In this document: piece by piece, positions 30,430 through 54,155 of the stretch
Layout of the letters: each line of letters opens with the position of its first letter
Numbering within the stretch: position 1 is the first letter of the stretch
From: Spizellomyces punctatus DAOM BR117
Taxonomy: Eukaryota
NCBI GenBank assembly: GCA_000182565.2
Contig: KQ257453.1
Length of the DNA: 64,000 nucleotides
Direction: 5' to 3' (one strand)
The notes under the pieces: generated by a model
What the model was told of the DNA's origin: nothing
The model's input: the letters and a program-made list of their open reading frames with translations, nothing else
Databases searched by the model: none
Made by a program: the position numbers and the translations under genes

Positions 30430-30520
30430 ATTCAATTCAGTTGTTTAGTGTAGAGGTGACAGAAACTGGCACTAGCTACTACACCAGGGAATAAACCGGC
30501 GACAACCGGTTCGGAAAAGC
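30430..30520 (-). ncRNA. Fanzor omegaRNA-like scaffold (30520-30446) plus flanking guide
   Basis: GCUUUUCCGAACCGGUUGUCGCCGGUUUAUUCCCUGGUGUAGUAGCUAGUGCCA...CACUA is the same length (75 nt) as, and colinear with, the omegaRNA of element C (54064-54138). Confidence 0.8.
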
Positions 30521-31194
30521 TACTACTAGGCAATTATACACGCAATACGTAACGGTTGGTTCTAACCGGATAATTGCCCACCACCACACGCGGTCCCTAC
30601 TAGGCCTTGATCTGGAACTCTTGATGGCATTGAAGCCAGACTCTTGCATCCAGGAGCGAATCGACTGGGCAGCATCACAAGCCAGAGGATGTTCAGTGAC
30701 AAGACTTGGAGACTAAAACTGCATGTCAGCGACAGAATGACATGAAAAGAGATGATGCCATCGGTACATACCAACCAAGCTCAACAAATGTGGCAGCATA
30801 ATAGTAGGTTTTGTTATCAGATCCGATTGGTTGCCGCTGGTTCTGATCACGGTTGCTGTCGGGCGGTCGAGGTCCTCAACACCACCACATCGGCGTTCTC
30901 ATGGTTGACCGAGTCACGATGAGGTTGCAATGTGGGTCGCTATGAGGTCGCAATGAGCGTTTGTGCAGATGCTTGCGAGTCGAGGATGGGTAAAGAGGAA
31001 AGAGGGAAAAGGCCCCCCTTTTACAGACCTTTGGCATGCGCCTCACCGCAGTTTAAAAAAAAAAAAAAAAAACATTACAATACATGCCACACCGTTTTGA
31101 GCAGTAGATGGGGGTGCTGATTATGCGATATGATTAACCGGATTGAGCCGGATAATAATGAGTCCTAGTGCCATTTTCAATCACCTCCACACTA
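30446..31194 (-). mobile_element. Element A: non-autonomous Fanzor-family ('ghost') TIR element, 749 bp
   Basis: TIRs 30446-30475 and 31165-31194 match at 26/30. The promoter-side TIR matches the TIR of Fanzor element C at 23/30. CATA lies at its 5' junction on the minus strand (31196-31193). The body is homologous to element B. No Fanzor ORF. Confidence 0.9.
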
Positions 31195-31286
31195 TGCTGT
31201 GTTGTCATGTGACATGCCACGAAGCTAAGCACGCGCTTATTAGACGCACCACGTCGCAAGCACGTCCATCCACCAATTTCAACCAG

Positions 31287-45006: not shown

Positions 45007-45174
45007 TGTAGGAAGCGCCAATCTATTCCAGTGTTGACCCGAGTACGAGAAGGTTGAAGCAAGGTCTTCCAGGGGATATATCAGCTATTCATTCATGCAA
45101 CTTATATTCGATCGGCCAAAAATCAAAAAATAGCATCGGGGAATTTGACGATTAGCTGTAGGTAAGCAGAACGC

Positions 45175-45389
45175 GTGACTAAACCCTTCTTTAGTGTGCA
45201 GGTGGTAGAAAATGTCACTAGGGACAAATTCTCCCTCCAACCCACTACAGCCGGTTCTAATTTACAATTAGCCAGCCTGTCCAACCCTTCATAACCTATC
45301 CTGCAAACGAGTCCCACCCCATCCTAACTCGCTACAGATTCCGGCCTGGGTTGAACTGGGGTACGTGCAAAGCAGCACGATTCCACTAA
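45175..45389 (-). ncRNA. Putative novel structured RNA (candidate alternative omegaRNA) plus flanking guide
   Basis: Occupies the omegaRNA position of element A. Several nested stems found by eye and a terminal CUAGUG...CACUA pseudoknot potential. Confidence 0.55.
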
Positions 45390-45919
45390 CTACCACTAGG
45401 CCCAATTACACATGCGATACATTACGGTTGTTTCTAACCGGGTAACTAAGCCCACCACCACGAGAGAAATCCTACAAAGCCTTTGATTCCGAAATTCTTT
45501 AGTCGGAGGATGTTCAGATACTAATTAAACCAGAATTAGACTCGGAATCCGCGTGGGAAAAATCAGCAAGATATACCTGCGATCGTAGCAATATAGTAGT
45601 AGCAGCGTTTGCAAGGGGTTATGTTGTTGTTGTCGGGCGGGCGAGGTCCTCGACACCAGAGCAGTATTCTCATGGTGGACTTGAGAGTTGAGCGTTGGGC
45701 AGATGCTTGCGAGTCGAGAATGGGTAAAGAGGAAAGAGGGAAAAGGCCCCCCTTTTATAGACCTTTGGCATGCGCCTCACCGCAGTTTAAAAAAAAAAAC
45801 ATTACATGCATGCCTCACCGCTTTGAGCGATAGATGGGGGTGCTGATTATGCGATATGATTAACCGGATTATCCGGATAATAATGGGTTCTAGTGCCATT
45901 TTCAATCACCTCCACACTC
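45192..45919 (-). mobile_element. Element B: non-autonomous TIR element of the same family as A, 728 bp, with a different 3' RNA module
   Basis: TIRs 45192-45221 and 45890-45919 match at 25/30. The segment ~45690-45919 is nearly identical to ~30955-31194 of A, with patchy homology down to 45390. The 5' junction reads CAGA instead of CATA. Confidence 0.9.
45690..45800 (-). promoter_or_regulatory. Pol II-type promoter of element B: T11 tract, TATAAAA (45759-45753), CT-rich stretch
   Basis: The minus strand reads T11...CTATAAAAGGGGGGCCTTTTCCCTCTTTCCTCTTTACCC. The same block is in A (T18, TGTAAAA at 31025-31019). Confidence 0.6.
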
Positions 45920-45939
45920 TGCTGGAACTGGTTCGGTCA

Positions 45940-47012
45940 ATGGACATGCGCGAAATGGGGAATGGTTCCCAACAGGACAGTTCAGATCCGTTCGGGGCAT
46001 TCGACATTGACGAAGCAGATTTGGAGCCACTCTATCATCAGGACCGGCTATGCTGTCCACAATGCAGACGAAATCACAAAGTTTTTTGCCCCCGCTGCGG
46101 TAATAACGACAAGACTGGCACCCGCAAAAGAGAAGGGAACTCACTTTTCTATATGCCTTTCTTACTTTACTATAGGCATACCATTAGGCCATACACCTCC
46201 CCATGTCCAATTGCCGATATCTGTGGACATGTATGTTCGACAAGCAGTGTTCTAAAGCTATGACACTCATTCTCGTCGTGCAGTTACCGTGACCCGCGAG
46301 AAACTGAGGGCAAAAGTACGTCAGCACATGCGCGCATCATTGCGCCTGATTCAGTTACAATTAAGGTATGCCTCTGCATGTCGTCCGTCATGTACCAGAA
46401 GGCCAATATAAGTATGGTTGTAGGTAGAAAATATGGTGAAAGCGCCGGATACGTCGAGCATTACAAAGTATACAGATCCGCAACGATGTCTTCTTCTCTT
46501 TCCCTCCGAGGTGTGAGCTGCATGATTTGGCTTCTGACCTGTTGCTGTGTTTGTCATCGATTCCTTCATATGGCTAGGATGCCCTACCGCTAGCTGACAT
46601 AGAGCCAGGTTCTTTCGACAAACTGATTGTGCTTGATGGAACGTGGAAACAAGGGAAGGCGATGGCTGGTGCAATAGCTGGTCAGAGCTTTCAGAGAGTG
46701 TCTATCCGAAGTCGCCGGACCCTCTTTTGGCGTTACCAGCCTTTTGGAGAGACCTACCTGTCGACGATTGAGGCAGTGTACTGGTTCTTTCGAGACTTTC
46801 ATGACGCATATAGCAGAGATCCTTACGATGGTCGCTACGACAATCTATTATTCTATTTTAAACTGCAGTGGGGCCTGATTCAGGACATCTATTCTAGAAA
46901 TCCACAGAAACAGTTCACGTCAAGGAAATTGGATGGGGAAAGTTACATCCGGGGAAGGGCGAGACTGCAGAATAGTGCGAGTCCTCCTGATACGGAGGAA
47001 GCGCAAACTTAA
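45940..47012 (+). CDS. DTWD1: tRNA-uridine aminocarboxypropyltransferase (DTW domain)
   Basis: CPQC...FCPRC, EGKSTSAHARIIAP, LLLFPS, LIVLDGTWKQG, TLFWRYQ, YLSTIEAVYWF and YDNLLFYF. Confidence 0.9.
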
Positions 47013-47177: not shown

Positions 47178-50100
47178 ATGTTATCACATGTAGAGGGCTT
47201 AATAGCTGAGCAAGTGAGTATTCAAGCAGCAGGCAAACTGAAACAGCCATCGCCTATGCTGATTTATCTCATGCCAGCATCCCGAAGGTGCTCGACCGCG
47301 CATGGTCATTTCGAAAATGGTTCTCAGAAATTTCAAGTCGTACGCAGGGACGGTTGAAATAGGGCCGTTTCATAAGGTTTGAGTGACCTATTTCAACAGC
47401 AGCTACCAGTAAACGCTTATCAGTTTGCTTTTGCCAGTCCTTCACCTCAATAGTCGGCCCCAACGGGTCTGGAAAATCGAACGTTATTGACTCGCTCTTA
47501 TTTGTGTTTGGGTTCAAAGCGAAGAAAATGAGACAAGGAAAGCTATCTGAACTCATTCACAACTCCACACACCACCAGAACCTAGATAGTTGCAGTGTCG
47601 AGGTGCACTTCCGCGAAATAATAGACCTGGTATCTTTGAAATGATAATATTCCCTTCATCTTATGTTTACAAGAATTCTAATGCTAGTATATGGATAGCC
47701 AGGGCCGGATGCTTTTAGCATGGTCGAAGGCTCTGATCTCGTTGTGTCACGATCTGTTGAACGAGGCGGGAGTGACAGAGCGCCAGATAAGAGCATCTAT
47801 CGGATCAATGGACGGACGAGTAGTTTCACAGAGGTGACCGGCCTGCTAAAAAGTAAGGGTGTTGACCTGGAGCATAAGCGGTTTTTGATTCTTCAGGTAG
47901 GTGCTGTGTCGATTCTTAAATTTATAGGTGCGTATGACGAATACTATTGACCAAAGGGGGAAGTGGAGTCAATTTCTCTCATGAAGCCCAAAGCCCAAAA
48001 TGAACATGAAGATGGGCTGCTCGAGTATCTAGAAGACATCATTGGAACCTCCCGCTATAAACAACCCATCGAAGATGCAAACAAGCAGCTCGATGAACTA
48101 AACGAGGAACGTTCAGAGAAGCTGAACCGACTAAAATTTGTGGAGAGGGATAAGAAGTCATTAGAGGTACATGAACTGTCGTCTTACTTTGACGCATTTC
48201 GTGCATTTGCAAATCTCAAGTTCTTGCTCTGTTTAAAATAGTCGAAAAGAAAAGACGCCGAAGACTTCATTCACACAGAAAATCTGCTTAAGAAGAAGAA
48301 GAATGCACTCTATCATATTTACCTCGCCGAGTGCACCCTTGAAATTGCCAGCCTTAGTTCCACCATAGAGTCCCTAAATGTCAAACAGGAAGGCGAAAGC
48401 CGGAGGTTCATGACGTTGAAAGAAGAAGTGAACTCGTTGGAGGAAAGACATAGTACCATACAGAATGATTACAATGTAATGACATAGTATGAGATCATAT
48501 GCTTTATGACTTGCTGACGGCTTTGATCAGACTATAGCAGCAAAGGCCAAATCAGTTCGGGACGAACTGCAACGATATGATCGCGCGGAGGTCGAACTTA
48601 AAGAAAAGGAAGCACATCTGCAAAAGAAGCTGAAAAAGCTTTCCAGTGCCCTTCACAAAGTAGGACCTAGTAATTTCTTTCAGGTGGATGCCAATGCTGA
48701 TAGAGTTGCAGGAGAGTCTGCAGCGTTCGGAGAATGAAACTTGGATTCGCAACTTCGATGCGGATATGGAGAAAGCCACAATGGAGGCTGGTGAGCTGGC
48801 ATCACGACTTGCCGCCGAGGAGAAGGCACTCGAAACAATCAGGGAAAGTCTAAAAGGTGTCTATCTAGGATGTACTGCATAGTAGAGGACTGAGCTGATG
48901 CAAGTGTCATAGGCAAGACGGAGGTCTTTCAAAAACAGATCGAAAAGAAGCAGGAAGAGTTAGCTCCCTGGATGGAGAAAATAAATGAAAAGCAAGCGGC
49001 ATTAGACGTTGCGTCATCGGAGAGGGAACTACTAGAGCAGAAAATAACATCTTCGAAAACTGCATTGAAGGAAGCTGAGCAGAAAGTTGTGGAGCTTCGC
49101 GCTTTACTTGGGCGGAAGGTAACATTGTTCCTCGACCGCTGGTCGTTTATTCTATTAAAATTTTTCAAACATGAAACTATACAGCAAAAGGAGCTTTCGC
49201 TAATACGGGAGTCGCAAGAGGCTCTGGAAGCGAAAAACATAAGTCTCCAGAAGGCAATGCAGGAGTGCACGATTAAGGAACAGGACCTGCGCAAATCTGT
49301 CACGCAGTCACGGCAGAAGGCGGACGAAGCGAAGGTGTCCCTGCAGGCAGCTCAAACCAGAGGCAAAGTGCATACAAGTTTAATCCAGCAGAGCCACACC
49401 GGCAGAATTCCAGGGATCTGTGTGAGCATCAGCCAGAGGAACTAATCATCCTATCTTTTCCTGTTGGCTCAATTATCACTTAATCCTAGGGACGGTTGGG
49501 AGACCTTGGCGTGATTGATGATGCCTACGACATTGCCGTCACCACCGCATGCGGCGCCCTCGATGCAATTGTCGTTGATACGGTAGATGCGGGACAGCAA
49601 TGCATCGAATTTTTGCGAAAGCAAAGCCTTGGCCGCGCAACCTTTATCTGCTTGGACAAGCTTAAACAGGGAAATCGAGAGCCCATTGACACTCCCGAAA
49701 GGGTCCCCCGTTTATTTGACTTGATCAAACCTAAGCATCCCAAATATGCTCAGGCTTTTTATCAAGTGCTGCAAGATACTTTAGTGGCAAAAGACTTGGA
49801 GCAAGCGAATCGGATAGCTTTCGGTAATTCGCGACGGTATCGCGTTGTTACGCTTGATGGACAGCTTATTGACACTTCGGGGACCATGAGCGGCGGAGGA
49901 AACAAACCACAGCGTGGGGGAATGAGCTCTAAATTTGCAGCTGACGGGGTCACGCAAGCAACTGTGGTCCAACTCGAGAAAGAGAAGGAACAGATTGAAG
50001 GGGTGTTGCAAGAGCTGCTCGAGAAGCGCCGCCAGTTGGAGCAGCAGATTGATGAGTGTGGACGCCAGCTGCCCGCTGTTGAGCTAGAATTGACAAAAGT

Positions 50101-51993
50101 TGAAATGGACGTGAAGTCGCTGCAGGAAGGGTTGGCGGATGCAGAGAAGCATGCAGAGATTGTCAGGTACGCTGGATGGCAGCAATTGTGCCGCATGAAA
50201 ATGTGTTCTGATCTAGTTGATAGAACTCAACAGCAAGGGCCGAGTACCGAAGACCTGTCTCGCCGCGACGAACTCAATAGCATTATATCTAAGCTCACCA
50301 AGCAGACAAGTAATCTGCAGGAAAGTGCGACCGTAATTCAAGAAGACATCAAGGAGCTACAAGGCAAAATTCTCGAAGTCGGCGGGGTGCGGCTAAGAAC
50401 ACAACAAGCGAAGGTTGATGGAGTTAACGAAGAGATTGGCATAAATAACACGAGAATGACGAAGCTGCAAGTGGAGCGGTCAACAAGAGATAAAGCAGTG
50501 GCTAAGATACTGAAAAGTATTCACAAGAATCAAACTGAACTCGACAGTGTTAAGACAGAAATCGAGAGCATCGATGCAGATCTGGAGCGTCAACGGTCCG
50601 CAGCTAGTCAAGTGAAGGGGAAAGTTCAAGAGGCTCAGCAGGTTGATTGAGAGTGGCGACCTGGTGACTACATTCGTCATTCATCTTTATCTATTCAATG
50701 TTTGCACAGGTGCTGGAGACGAAGGAAACAGAGCTGGAGCAAATAAAGGAAATACTTGACGTCAAAACAGAAGAGATAAACGAAATGCGCAAACTTCAGG
50801 TATCCTAGATGCAATTAAAAATCCTAGCAAAGTGTAGGTCTCATTAACCTTCCGATCAGGTCGAAACTAAGGCACAGCTTGAAAGAGCGAAGGAGGGATT
50901 GGCAACCAAATTGAAACAACAGAAGTATTATCAAAACGAAATTTCGTGTAATCTTCGATTACAGTCAACTGGGTACGTTTCTAATAGTATTTGCCTTTGA
51001 GCTACGCAGTCATTTATGCAATTGTAGGTTTGAGTCAGATGACGAGGACCTGGAGCTCGAGCAGTACACAGCCGAACAGCTGGGCGCCTTGGACAAGGAA
51101 GAAGTGGAAGCGGATATTCAAAAACTTCAAGGTGAGTGCATTTTCTGTGTACCTTGGCCTTCTGATTTATCCTAAATCGGTATTTTACAGCCAAAGTGAA
51201 TGAGGGGACCCCAAACCTGACCGTTCTCGAGGAATACAGGCAGAAGCGTGAGGCGTATCTCGCACAAGCAAAGGTGTTGGAGGAGGTAACTCTACGACGT
51301 GATGAAGCAAAGAAGTCTTACGACGAGCTCCGGAACAAGCGGCTGGCTGAATTCATGGAAGGCTTCACTGCTATATCACAAAAACTGAAGGAAATGTATC
51401 AGGTCCGTGCTCTTTCTCAATTGGTCAACATGTTAATACCATCGCCACGTTACTGATGTGGCATTTCAGATGATTACTCTTGGCGGTAACGCCGAACTAG
51501 AGTTGGTTGATAGCCTGGATCCCTTCTCCGAAGGAATTATATTCAGTGTCATGCCGCCCAAGAAAAGCTGGAAGAACATTTCGAATCTCTCTGGTGGGGA
51601 GAAAGTAAGCAACCTAGAACAAGTGGGCCTTTAGTAAATTGCAGAAACATCTGACGCTCGCGCTTCGATAGACGCTAAGTTCGCTGGCTCTGGTGTTTGC
51701 ATTGCATCACTTCAAGCCGACGCCTCTCTACGTAATGGACGAGATCGACGCGGCCCTCGACTTCCGTAATGTCTCAATCGTGGCAAATTACATTAAAGAA
51801 AGAACGAAGAATGCACAGTTTGTAATAATTAGTTTGCGAAACAATATGTTTGAGTTGGCCGATCGGTTGGTAGGGATATATAAGGTACGTTATGCTGGTC
51901 TTTTTCTAATACATAGGCATCCCTCTCACTTGCTTAACTTAGACGGATAACACGACGAAAAGTATCACCATTAACCCTACTGCTGTTGCCTGA
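47178..51993 (+). CDS. SMC4: Condensin SMC subunit 4 (Smc4/Cut3)
   Basis: NFKSYAG, IVGPNGSGKSNVIDSLLFVFG, RFLILQ/GEVESI, hinge GRLGDLG...GTMSGGG, NLSGGEK and PTPLYVMDEIDAALD. The start could alternatively be the in-frame ATG at 47103. Confidence 0.95.
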
Positions 51994-52005
51994 TATTAGT
52001 GTACA

Positions 52006-54138
52006 TAGTGCGGAGCCGATGGGTATTGGCACTAGTACAAAGATTCCAACCAATTTAATCATAATTTTACTCGATTTAGACTCATGAACTATGGTTTGAT
52101 CCACAAAATCCTATATAAGTCATCGTCCATTTTCCCAGGCTTTCATCTTTTTCTACAGATATCATCATGCCACCAAAGAAGAAGCAAAAGCTCGAAAGGC
52201 TCGAAAAACTCGACAAACCTACTTGCTTACATACCTGCAACAAGACTTCCTTTGCAAAAGCTTTCCTGCCAAACTACCACCAACGGCTTCTAGATTACAT
52301 CGCCATCATCCATCAACTCGCCGACCACGCTTCCCACGCTCTCAAATTCTACATCCTATCTGCACCAACCTTTCCCACAGTAAATGAAGATACAATCGAA
52401 GCGATTCTCTATCTTCTCAACAAAGGAGAGGCTTGGCAGCCAAAAACTGATGCGAAAAAGGCGTTACGCAAATGCTTGTTGCCATACATTTGTCAGTACT
52501 GCCGCATCGGCTTTGTTCATCCAAATCTACGAGGCGAGCAGCAGTCAATCAATTACTTGACAGCGAGTATGATGACAAACCTGAAAGTCAATGTTCAAGA
52601 GCATTTCATGCAGATGCTCCTTCGGTATATCAATCTGCGGCTCGATGTGAAGGGACAGAAGCAGCAACTGCCACCTAAAAGTGATGTGCGAAAGGCTTTC
52701 TTTGCTCGTCTTCGCTACTTGAAGTCAATTTTCCTTTTTGATATTGTGCCCGAGTCACTCGATGACTTGACCGCTGAAGAGAGTGAGCTTCTAGAAGAGA
52801 TGTGGTCCTTCATTCCCCTTTCCGACCAGCCACTCACATATTCAGTTGCTGTAGACCCTCTCGCCTTCTTCCCTGCCTACTGTCGGTTGTCAAGCCTATA
52901 TGAAAAGCATGGATTTCGACGGTTCAGTGCAATCCCACTTCGCCGCTCCCTCATCCAAAGCCATGTGCGGATCGACACCGTCATCCTCTACTCTCATATC
53001 CTTTGCATCACGCGGCGAGACGCAGAAGCTGTAGCAAAGGTCGATTTATGGATGCACATCTGCAATCTACGTACCAAGGCTTTTCGGTCTCGCCGCGATA
53101 TGCAGTTTGAAGGCTCGATCACAACGGACGGTACCTCGGTGTCTGTGTATTTGAAACACCCCAACGCCGACAAGTATGGAAAGCGTGGAGCGAGAAAGTC
53201 AGCAAAGACCCTAGAAGCTGAGGTGAAGGCAGTATATGTGGAGAACAACTTACCTGCTTGTTGAGCAGAGAATGTTGTCGTTATCGACCCAAACAAGCGC
53301 GACATTCTCTACTGCCAGGACGGCAATGGTACAACGTTTCGCTACACCGCAAACCAGCGAGCCATGGAGACAGGCAGCCGTCGGCAGCGAAAGGAACAAC
53401 AGCAGATGAAGAAGGAAGTGGGAATGGACGTCATAGAATCACGAATACCATCTCACAAGACGATGAACCTCATGGACTTCACTCGCTACCTTCTTGTTCG
53501 CCGCGCAGATTCGGATCGTCGCAAGGAATTCTACTCCCATCCCGCCCACACACGGTGGAAGTGGCATTCCTTCATCAGTCGGCAGCGAAGTGAATCAGAC
53601 CTCATAAGTGCCATGCACAACAAATACGGTGAAAACTTTACCATTGTGATGGGTGATTGGAGCGACGCCGGTCGAACTGCGAGATTTCAGACCTCATCAA
53701 AGATGAAAGGTTGGCGCACCCTGTTCAAGCGCAACCGCATTGATTGTTTTCTTCTTGATGAACACAAGACCTCATCTGTTTGCCCTCGCTGTTCATCCTC
53801 TGAGTTTGTCGAGAAAGAATTCAAAGAACGACCTCATTCAAGACCTTGGCGCCGTCGCGAAGGCAAGATGGAAAAAGTCCACGGATTGCTGGGTTGTACC
53901 AACCCTAACTGTTTGCAGCAAGCCTGGACGATGCGCTACTGGAACCGAGATACGCTGGCAACCTGTAATATGCTGACAATCGTGCAATCAATGTTGGATG
54001 GGCACGGTAGACCAGAGGTGTTCAGCAGGGGTGTTCCAGCCGTAGCGTAGATTGGTTAGATTAGCTTATCCGAACTGGTTGTCGCCGGTTCAATTCCTGG
54101 TGCGGGTGCTAGTGCCAATACCCATCGGCTCCGCACTA
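52006..54138 (+). mobile_element. Element C: Spu-type Fanzor1 TIR element, 2133 bp, no transposase
   Basis: Perfect 30-bp TIRs TAGTGCGGAGCCGATGGGTATTGGCACTAG (52006-52035) and reverse complement (54109-54138). CATA at the left junction (52004-52007), TA at both ends, TATATAA upstream of an intronless Fanzor ORF. Confidence 0.95.
52167..54050 (+). pseudogene. Fanzor1 RNA-guided endonuclease (SpuFz1-like) interrupted by one in-frame TGA at 53262-53264
   Basis: MPPKKKQKLERL start and SITTDG as in SpuFz1 (recalled). After the stop, the same frame continues AENVVVIDPNKRD (RuvC-I), VMGDWS, LLDEHKTSSVCPRC, CTNPNC and YWNRD...CNM. 627 codons if read through. Confidence 0.92.
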
Positions 54139-54155
54139 TAATTAATACTTATCGA
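54064..54155 (+). ncRNA. Fanzor omegaRNA (scaffold 54064-54138 overlapping the right TIR; guide is flanking DNA from 54139)
   Basis: Hairpin GAACUGG/CCGGUUC, stem GGGUG/UACCC, loop UAGUGC complementary to the terminal GCACUA. Closely resembles the SpuFz1 omegaRNA as recalled. Confidence 0.88.

Follow-up and report, generated by a model that had tools for sequence, protein, structure and literature searches.

The window analysed here, 64,000 nucleotides of contig KQ257453.1 (assembly GCA_000182565.2) of Spizellomyces punctatus DAOM BR117, contains two non-autonomous mobile elements, designated A and B, together with one copy (F) of the SPu-1/SpuFz1 Fanzor element. In composition and ORF pattern the window is eukaryotic. 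On balance, and with considerable reserve, we favor the reading that A and B represent two subfamilies of the known ghost Spu-1 elements, and that B owes its longer, remodelled RNA end to one remodelling event. The two elements were compared with each other and with F, and Logan contigs of four public runs (X1, X7, X10 and X11), whose kind could only be guessed, were aligned to B, runs X13-X20 with their small word shares being left aside. The features on which the comparison is based are the following (IR, inverted repeat; ORF, open reading frame).

30446-31194, minus strand: element A, a ghost Spu-1 non-autonomous element of 749 bp from IR to IR (IRs at 31165-31194 and 30446-30475), with no Fanzor ORF.
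30520-30530, minus strand: break motif of A, CCTAGTAGTAG; its CCU is predicted to close the outer stem of the leader, and AGUAGUAG forms the predicted unpaired linker before scaffold nt 1.
30445-30519, minus strand: omegaRNA scaffold of A, 75 nt (stem-loop 1 at nt 8-27, stem 2 at nt 34-74), which includes the right IR.
45192-45919, minus strand: element B, a ghost-type element of 728 bp with an alternative right end; IRs at 45890-45919 (29/30 matches to the left IR of A) and 45192-45221 (24/30 matches to the right IR of A).
45390-45400, minus strand: break motif of B, CCTAGTGGTAG; the contigs of X1, X7 and X11 carry four extra bases, read as GGTAGTTAGTTAG, with ACTA inserted behind 45384.
45222-45389, minus strand: B module, 168 nt from the break to the right IR (44 nt in A), with no match elsewhere in the window.
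54065-54139, plus strand: canonical omegaRNA scaffold of F, 75 nt, located 14 nt past the stop codon (fold z-score -3.55).

Upstream of the break, A and B share a common body, as the original prediction had stated. The alignment of the two elements comprises 246 bp at 91% identity on the 5' side, a patchy middle with further blocks, and then a 72-bp block at 82% (A 30587-30520, B 45461-45390), which stops at CCTAGT(A/G)GTAG. The homology thus ends as sharply as had been claimed, and at the motif named there. The sequence CCTAGTRGTAG is found exactly twice in the window, at 30520-30530 and 45390-45400 on the minus strand (chance expectation 0.03; none of 100 shuffles gave two occurrences). Among the run contigs, three that derive from A-type copies diverge from B at 45387, 45388 and 45389 (records 13, 14 and 3, respectively). 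It had also been proposed that the break marks the start of the omegaRNA of A, and this proved correct to the base: the gap-free alignment of the F and A scaffolds, combined with the numbering given in the portion of Saito et al. (2023; PMC10432273) used here, places nt 1 of the A scaffold at 30519, directly after CCTAGTAGTAG. The B module is bracketed by CCTAGTG (45394-45400 and 45216-45222), as described earlier; window-wide this heptamer is not enriched (4 found vs. 4.8 expected). The statement that homology resumes at the terminal inverted repeat stands for the right IRs themselves, but a stem-loop-1-like 19-mer located before the IR also matches. The idea of an interchangeable cargo was not supported: only two module classes were seen, and it therefore rests on a single replacement.

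Element A belongs to an already published kind. In the sections of Saito et al. (2023; PMC10432273) consulted, 134 ghost Spu-1 loci are reported alongside 42 Fanzor loci, the ghosts being characterized by (i) IRs differing from the Fanzor IRs at 7 positions, (ii) a CA dinucleotide upstream, (iii) a conserved internal region, and (iv) a 75-nt omegaRNA-like right end; SpuFz1 was active in human cells with the ghost scaffolds of four loci. The left IR of A differs from that of F at 7 positions, which is the published number, and CA directly precedes the left IR in both elements (CAGCA|TAGTG in A, CAGCA|GAGTG in B). The numbers of positions matching the F IR, out of 30, are 23 (A left), 21 (A right), 22 (B left) and 20 (B right), and the left IRs of A and B agree at all but one position, so that the A and B IRs group apart from that of F. 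Neither element contains a Fanzor ORF between its IRs, nor any ORF of at least 200 aa. The scaffold of A (30445-30519) aligns with that of F (54065-54139) without gaps at 87% column identity over 75 nt (84% over 56 nt in a pairwise alignment of the scaffold region), and its predicted fold (z-score -4.4) has the same two stems as in F. By our reading of the folds and the alignment, two base pairs of stem 2 (54098-54138 vs. 30446-30486) changed on both sides between F and A, from C-G to U-A and from G-C to A-U, which supports the published omegaRNA fold. The F scaffold itself fits the numbering in the consulted part of PMC10432273 at U5, C6, C7, U16, G17, U18, C19 and G20, with a mismatch at G22. 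Element A therefore has every listed feature and is a ghost Spu-1 element of the published kind, not a new one.

Element B shares the IRs, the CA and the body with the ghosts of PMC10432273, as far as these are characterized in the portion used, but no 75-nt scaffold is recognizable in it, and 168 nt of B correspond to 44 nt of A; it is a variant and not a typical member. Both elements (749 and 728 bp) are longer than the published ghost core of ~550 nt plus IRs. The text of PMC10432273, in the sections consulted, describes no boundary at nt 1, no leader fold and no subfamily with a long module. The flanking sequence CAGCA is common to A (31195-31199) and B (45920-45924). In B the first IR base (45919) is G instead of T, so the target-adjacent motif CATA, which spans flank and IR, reads CAGA.

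The right end of B was analysed with respect to both sequence and predicted structure, and two further features were distinguished within it.

45239-45257, minus strand: stem-loop-1-like 19-mer, GAACCGGCTGTAGTGGGTT, with 15/19 matches to stem-loop 1 of A, ending 17 nt before the IR (18 nt in A).
45218-45247, minus strand: internal left-IR-like 30-mer, with 22/30 matches to the reverse complement of the right IR of B, giving a predicted 56-nt terminal hairpin.

A covariance model (R1) built from the F and A scaffolds scored 101.9 bits on F and 100.4 bits on A, while on B only the IR was matched (9.8 bits, E = 0.7). A local alignment at the right end scored 44.5 (shuffles 18.3 +/- 2.7), and degenerate remnants of the ordinary scaffold are thus still present in B. 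By our reading, U5 of the SpuFz1 scaffold is kept in B, C6 is changed to U and C7 to A. The stem-loop-1-like piece has the loop UGUA instead of UGUC and a G-G mismatch in the stem; the canonical stem has 8 bp and is followed by a 6-nt linker to stem 2. The module together with the IR (198 nt) is predicted to fold into four hairpins at -70.5 kcal/mol (shuffles -60.5 +/- 4.3), and in this minimum-energy fold the stem-loop-1-like bases are drawn into the long IR hairpin. The 19-mer and the IR-like 30-mer use overlapping bases, which makes a canonical scaffold fold in B unlikely; the 56-nt hairpin, an IR folded on an IR in the prediction, would be an enlarged stem 2.

Searches of other kinds revealed no relatives of the module. 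No tRNA was found, and no Rfam family matched at gathering score in the window; within 45100-46000 the only matches had E values of at least 5.8. Several candidate resemblances were rejected. Derivation of the module from the tail of a Fanzor ORF and its 3' region was not supported by DNA alignment to F 53800-54145 (z-score -0.3, not above shuffles). The peptide LVES...RPESVAS, considered as a Fanzor C-terminus, ranked 971st among the 2054 peptides reported by a C-terminal hidden Markov model (HMM; 2975 searched), and the resemblances at RPE, VAS* and WNR are due to chance. A direct repeat inside the module was equalled by 215 of 1000 shuffles, and the block before the break, tested in A as a decayed second scaffold copy, by 304 of 1000. 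When the corresponding block of B was compared with the right end of B itself, 23 of 1000 shuffles did as well, with equal spacing, a weak hint from multiple tests.

The contigs showed that the B module is not confined to the window, the possibility that it is a one-off insertion having been named in advance as the outcome that would speak against the proposal. The module is present in the contigs of all four runs. Two contigs, X11 record 12 (45113-45458) and X10 record 9 (45177-45520), extend from B's flank in the window across the IR, the module and the junction, and the arrangement is therefore not an assembly error. A third, X1 record 2 (1249 nt), enters B at 45194-45286 from a flank unlike that of B, with 4 other letters and 8 gaps, and thus represents a second locus. 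Position 45343 is overlapped by three distinct contigs in X1 and four in X7, and B-type copies are ~97% alike where seen. Contig depth over the module exceeds that over the flank (452 vs. 59.5 in X7; 25.3 vs. 2-4 in X1), and in X7 the summed depth is low upstream of a TATA-like box in the body and very high downstream of it. These depths would fit either about eight B-type copies or a transcription start after the TATA box, the contigs themselves giving neither copy number nor RNA level. The contigs of X10 and X11 do not cover 45689-45936. The B type is thus no product of misassembly and no one-off, and appears to be a small subfamily. Two metagenome loci (L001:873-894 and L002:503-524) were considered as relatives of the ghosts and rejected as chance matches, only the 22-mer CCTTTGGCATGCGCCTCACCGC being common. 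One stretch of B is skipped by contigs.

45521-45576, minus strand: 56 nt absent from contigs of X7, X11 and X10, which join 45520 to 45577.

The X10 contig that skips this stretch starts in B's own flank, and the difference may be an indel between assembly and sample or a difference between copies.

The body shared by A and B contains a segment resembling a promoter, a leader ending in a predicted structured domain, and a short ORF.

45752-45759, minus strand: TATA-like box of B, TATAAAAG, with the counterpart TGTAAAAG in A at 31018-31025; a putative promoter element.
30528-30579, minus strand: last leader domain of A, a predicted three-way junction containing the hairpin at 30553-30568 (z-score -0.74, not significant).
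45397-45454, minus strand: last leader domain of B, a predicted three-way junction containing the hairpin at 45425-45440, with the same topology as in A.
45528-45776, minus strand: ORF of 83 aa in the B body, with weak similarity to the RuvC-II/zinc-ribbon region of Fanzor.

The segment 45695-45799, which includes TATAAAAG, is the best-conserved part of the A/B body (97% over 105 nt), and for this reason it is taken as a putative promoter. No variants at a frequency of at least 10% are listed for 45743-45814 in the run contigs. About 30 nt upstream of the TATA-like box there is a T-tract on the element strand, 11 T long in B (45789-45799) and 18 T long in A (about 31057-31074). Homology of the ghost TATA region with the promoter region of F was considered but not borne out, as 58 of 500 shuffles aligned equally well.

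The conserved hairpin that the original prediction had placed just upstream of the break, CGGTTAGAAMCAACCG, is indeed present in A and B (30553-30568 and 45425-45440, minus strand) and nowhere else in the window. Its stem is identical in the two elements, so there is no covariation, and the variants listed for other copies fall in the loop (45431 and 45432). In both elements the last ~55 nt of the shared body are predicted to form an outer stem around this hairpin and a second small hairpin. The leader folds have non-significant z-scores, and two sequences cannot prove a structure; by our reading, the outer stem of B is 2 bp longer as a result of insertions on both strands, and one U-A pair of A is C-G in B. 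According to the predicted fold, the CCT of the break motif closes the outer stem and the remainder (AGTAGTAG in A) is an unpaired TAG-rich linker, which may be the site of RNA processing. The linker varies in length: TAGTAG follows CCTAG in A, TGGTAGTTAG (TGGTAG+TTAG) is found in B, and the contigs of X1, X7 and X11 have 4 bases more. A third form of the junction occurs in a loose-end contig of X11, in which a 23-nt linker like that of F, GATTGGTTAGATTAG, is followed by the scaffold start GCTTTTCC. In every form, TAG is the last part of the linker, directly ahead of nt 1.

A Fanzor HMM built from 35 homologues was searched against the 2975 peptides of the window. The 83-aa ORF of B was the best non-self match (HMM positions 522-570), with E = 1.0 among these 2975 peptides; with the search limited to A and B its E value was 0.026, and no shuffle out of 300 scored as high. 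A decayed 3' part of a Fanzor ORF may thus underlie the ghost body, in which case the leader would be homologous to the 5' extension that improves SpuFz1 activity. A Pfam search of the 83-aa ORF gave no match, and DNA similarity between the 3' end of the F ORF and the ghost bodies was not above that of shuffles.

The original prediction went further, suggesting that a non-autonomous family could exploit more than one RNA-guided nuclease. This was not supported: the B module is unlike Rfam families, the F/A scaffold model, the 3' end of the F ORF and the 3' non-coding DNA of F, and the search for a link between the module and a second nuclease yielded no evidence. The more general proposal of a modular cassette with different scaffolds fared better in that the common body and the sharp edge at the 5' end of the omegaRNA are real, but nothing ties the B module to another nuclease. 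Among the Fanzor proteins retrieved from S. punctatus, identity to F is 71-100% across the aligned parts of the C-terminal half, with P0011 representing the ~71% lineage; for most of them the alignments cover 57-100% of the 261-aa query, and for P0031 only 35%. In P0012, a more distant Fanzor relative with 57% identity across the C-terminal half, the ORF continues into the 3' region; its last residues, SEPVVAGS, are what stem-loop 1 of A encodes when translated. In the P0012 lineage the ORF and the scaffold thus seem to overlap, and the sequence suggests that P0012 keeps a canonical stem-loop 1 and that this stem-loop is conserved well beyond the paralogues present here. The apparently canonical stem-loop 1 of P0012 argues against close paralogues needing a different scaffold. 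The idea of a different nuclease is weakened by this comparison, which covered, of the Fanzor1 families in Table 1 of Bao and Jurka (2013; PMC3627910), the right end of one, and it retains a small probability.

According to the favored reading, A and B have a common layout: (i) the left IR; (ii) ~230 bp with the T-tract and the TATAAAAG box; (iii) a leader of ~330 nt; (iv) the unpaired TAG-rich linker; and (v) an RNA module that ends in the right IR and would read out into the flanking DNA as the guide. The module of A is the ordinary 75-nt SpuFz1 omegaRNA scaffold. In B, 168 nt take the place of the first ~45 nt of this scaffold, the only trace being a degenerate stem-loop-1-like piece whose spacing from the IR is conserved, and the IR-containing stem 2 is predicted to be extended to the 56-nt IR-on-IR hairpin. 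Probably, an ancestor of B underwent one insertion or replacement within the (TAG)n/(TTAG)n linker, which is prone to slippage, and the changed end then spread in trans to a few copies, as mobility would need only the IRs. The leader and the mature RNA would be two units under constraint, and the sharp edge would lie between them. Its function probably lost or changed, the B RNA is most likely an impaired or 5'-extended SpuFz1 guide and not the scaffold of another nuclease.

Several observations weigh against this reading. The break falls on scaffold nt 1 to the base, where by our estimate a random rearrangement would place it within +/-3 nt in ~1% of cases, and such a base-exact boundary hints that the RNA unit was selected for or that some mechanism is linked to it. 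The B module is predicted to be structured (z-score -2.3), and three of the four listed variants at predicted paired positions keep the pair, which fits a functional RNA as well as it fits recent copying. The stem-loop-1-like similarity is weak (23 of 1000 shuffles score as well as the 19-mer does against stem-loop 1 of A; p about 0.02 after several tests), and the 19-mer overlaps the 5' strand of the long hairpin, so that both cannot form together. In addition, three Fanzor1 families are listed for S. punctatus in Table 1 of PMC3627910, in the part of that paper drawn upon.

Alternatively, the B module could be a functional second scaffold, released from the common leader by cutting at this TAG linker; its user would be a divergent Fanzor paralogue or, with the module as a 5'-extended omegaRNA, SpuFz1 itself, and the body would be a reusable cassette. 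The exchange point exactly at nt 1, the structured prediction with its kept pairs, the presence of the module in several contigs and at a second locus, and the existence of three listed Fanzor1 families would all suit such a scaffold, as would the higher activity seen in human cells when the SpuFz1 scaffold is extended at its 5' end (PMC10432273, in the sections consulted). We nevertheless consider it unlikely, as no nuclease gene is linked to the module, which is unlike the right end of F and fails the scaffold model. The close identity of the S. punctatus Fanzors found to F, together with the stem-loop 1 that the 57% relative seems to keep, points the same way, and the ~97% likeness of the B-type copies makes their conservation uninformative on selection. 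Rather doubtful, too, is the version in which the ghost body would serve as a reusable promoter/leader/processing cassette and the B module as a second scaffold of ~200 nt, released at the TAG linker, for a divergent Fanzor lineage or another effector; because the coincidence at the boundary has a probability of only ~1%, a small share of probability is kept for it. Were this cassette real, one non-autonomous family would feed guides to more than one RNA-guided nuclease.

The module could also have a composite origin, in which a ghost truncated at the linker would have been joined to unrelated DNA ending in a minimal IR-IR unit (45192-45247); the transposase would then pair the left IR of the ghost with the new right IR, and the ~140 nt between would be captured filler. 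The last 56 nt do open with TAGTG and close with CACTA, as a complete mini-element would, their halves match at 22/30, the rest of the module resembles nothing tested, and the right IR of B is the most divergent of the four ghost IRs. Against such an origin stand the stem-loop-1-like 19-mer at the homologous offset and the break exactly at nt 1, which would be a coincidence; the ordinary stem 2 already is an 8-9-bp pairing of the IR on itself, so that simple extension accounts for the hairpin. We give the composite origin little credence. A private insertion or an assembly error at one locus, for which the single B-type copy in the window and the small indels and 56-nt stretch distinguishing the window from the run contigs could be cited, is highly improbable in view of the module in four of four runs, the two junction-bridging contigs that include the window's own flank, the different flank of X1 record 2, and the several distinct contigs at 45343 in X1 and X7.

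Element F, which provided the reference scaffold, is located on the plus strand and is collinear with A and B on the minus strand.

52006-54138, plus strand: element F, a SPu-1/SpuFz1 copy of ~2.1 kb, with identical 30-nt IRs at 52006-52035 and 54109-54138.
52167-54050, plus strand: ORF of F, a single ORF with an in-frame TGA at 53262-53264.

With the TGA read as X, the ORF matches the SpuFz1 chain of PDB 8gkh at 1209.5 bits over residues 2-627; the TGA is aligned with an Arg of the solved protein and the remainder aligns over its full length. Without a bypass of the stop, F is therefore probably inactive. In the protein database the product of F is SPPG_02771 of S. punctatus DAOM BR117 (locus protein of 605 aa), and this name together with the 8gkh match identifies F as a copy of SPu-1. 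Pfam searches of both halves of the ORF gave no match. SPu-1 is the element of the first Fanzor description, reported with 33-bp terminal inverted repeats and putative TA duplications (Bao and Jurka, 2013; PMC3627910, as far as consulted), and F agrees with that account in its length of ~2.1 kb, its single ORF and its terminal inverted repeats, a TA target duplication being putative in F as well. Elements A and B share with SPu-1 of that source the end sequences TAGTG...CACTA, but they have no ORF. At their outer edges, F and A start and end with TA and B starts with GA; with one copy of each, these bases may be either a target duplication or part of the IR. A gene of the SMC family with introns ends near 51950 (SMC_hinge at 49490-50647, SMC_N at 51672-51947), and F lies ~55 bp downstream of its last ORF piece.

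In the parts of a recent report used here (PMC13434818, 2026), 126 unique ghost scaffolds of 74-76 nt form two main clades along with small, divergent clusters, editing being poorer with the distant scaffolds. One of the divergent clusters may include the final 75 nt of B; those scaffolds were cut out as 75-nt pieces, and additional sequence between body and scaffold, as present in B, is not mentioned in these parts. Ghosts share the logic of the PATE-like IS200/IS605 derivatives, which are devoid of protein genes and whose omegaRNAs are used in trans by a nuclease encoded elsewhere (Meers et al., preprint, PMC10055086). Unlike ghosts, the PATE-like elements, as presented in the sections of PMC10055086 consulted, are prokaryotic, are moved as single-stranded DNA by TnpA and lack IR/TA ends, and no subfamily with a variant module is described for them in those sections.

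The ghosts represent a natural pool of additional guides for SpuFz1, a compact genome editor under development. The end of the body at nt 1, the conserved leader fold with its TAG linker, and the remodelled subfamily could help to explain how eukaryotic omegaRNAs arise out of longer transcripts and why SpuFz1 is more active with 5' extensions. If B-type RNAs are functional, they would constitute natural 5'-extended or alternative scaffolds; if they are not, ghosts can spread without a working guide, which bears on whether a guide is needed for their propagation.

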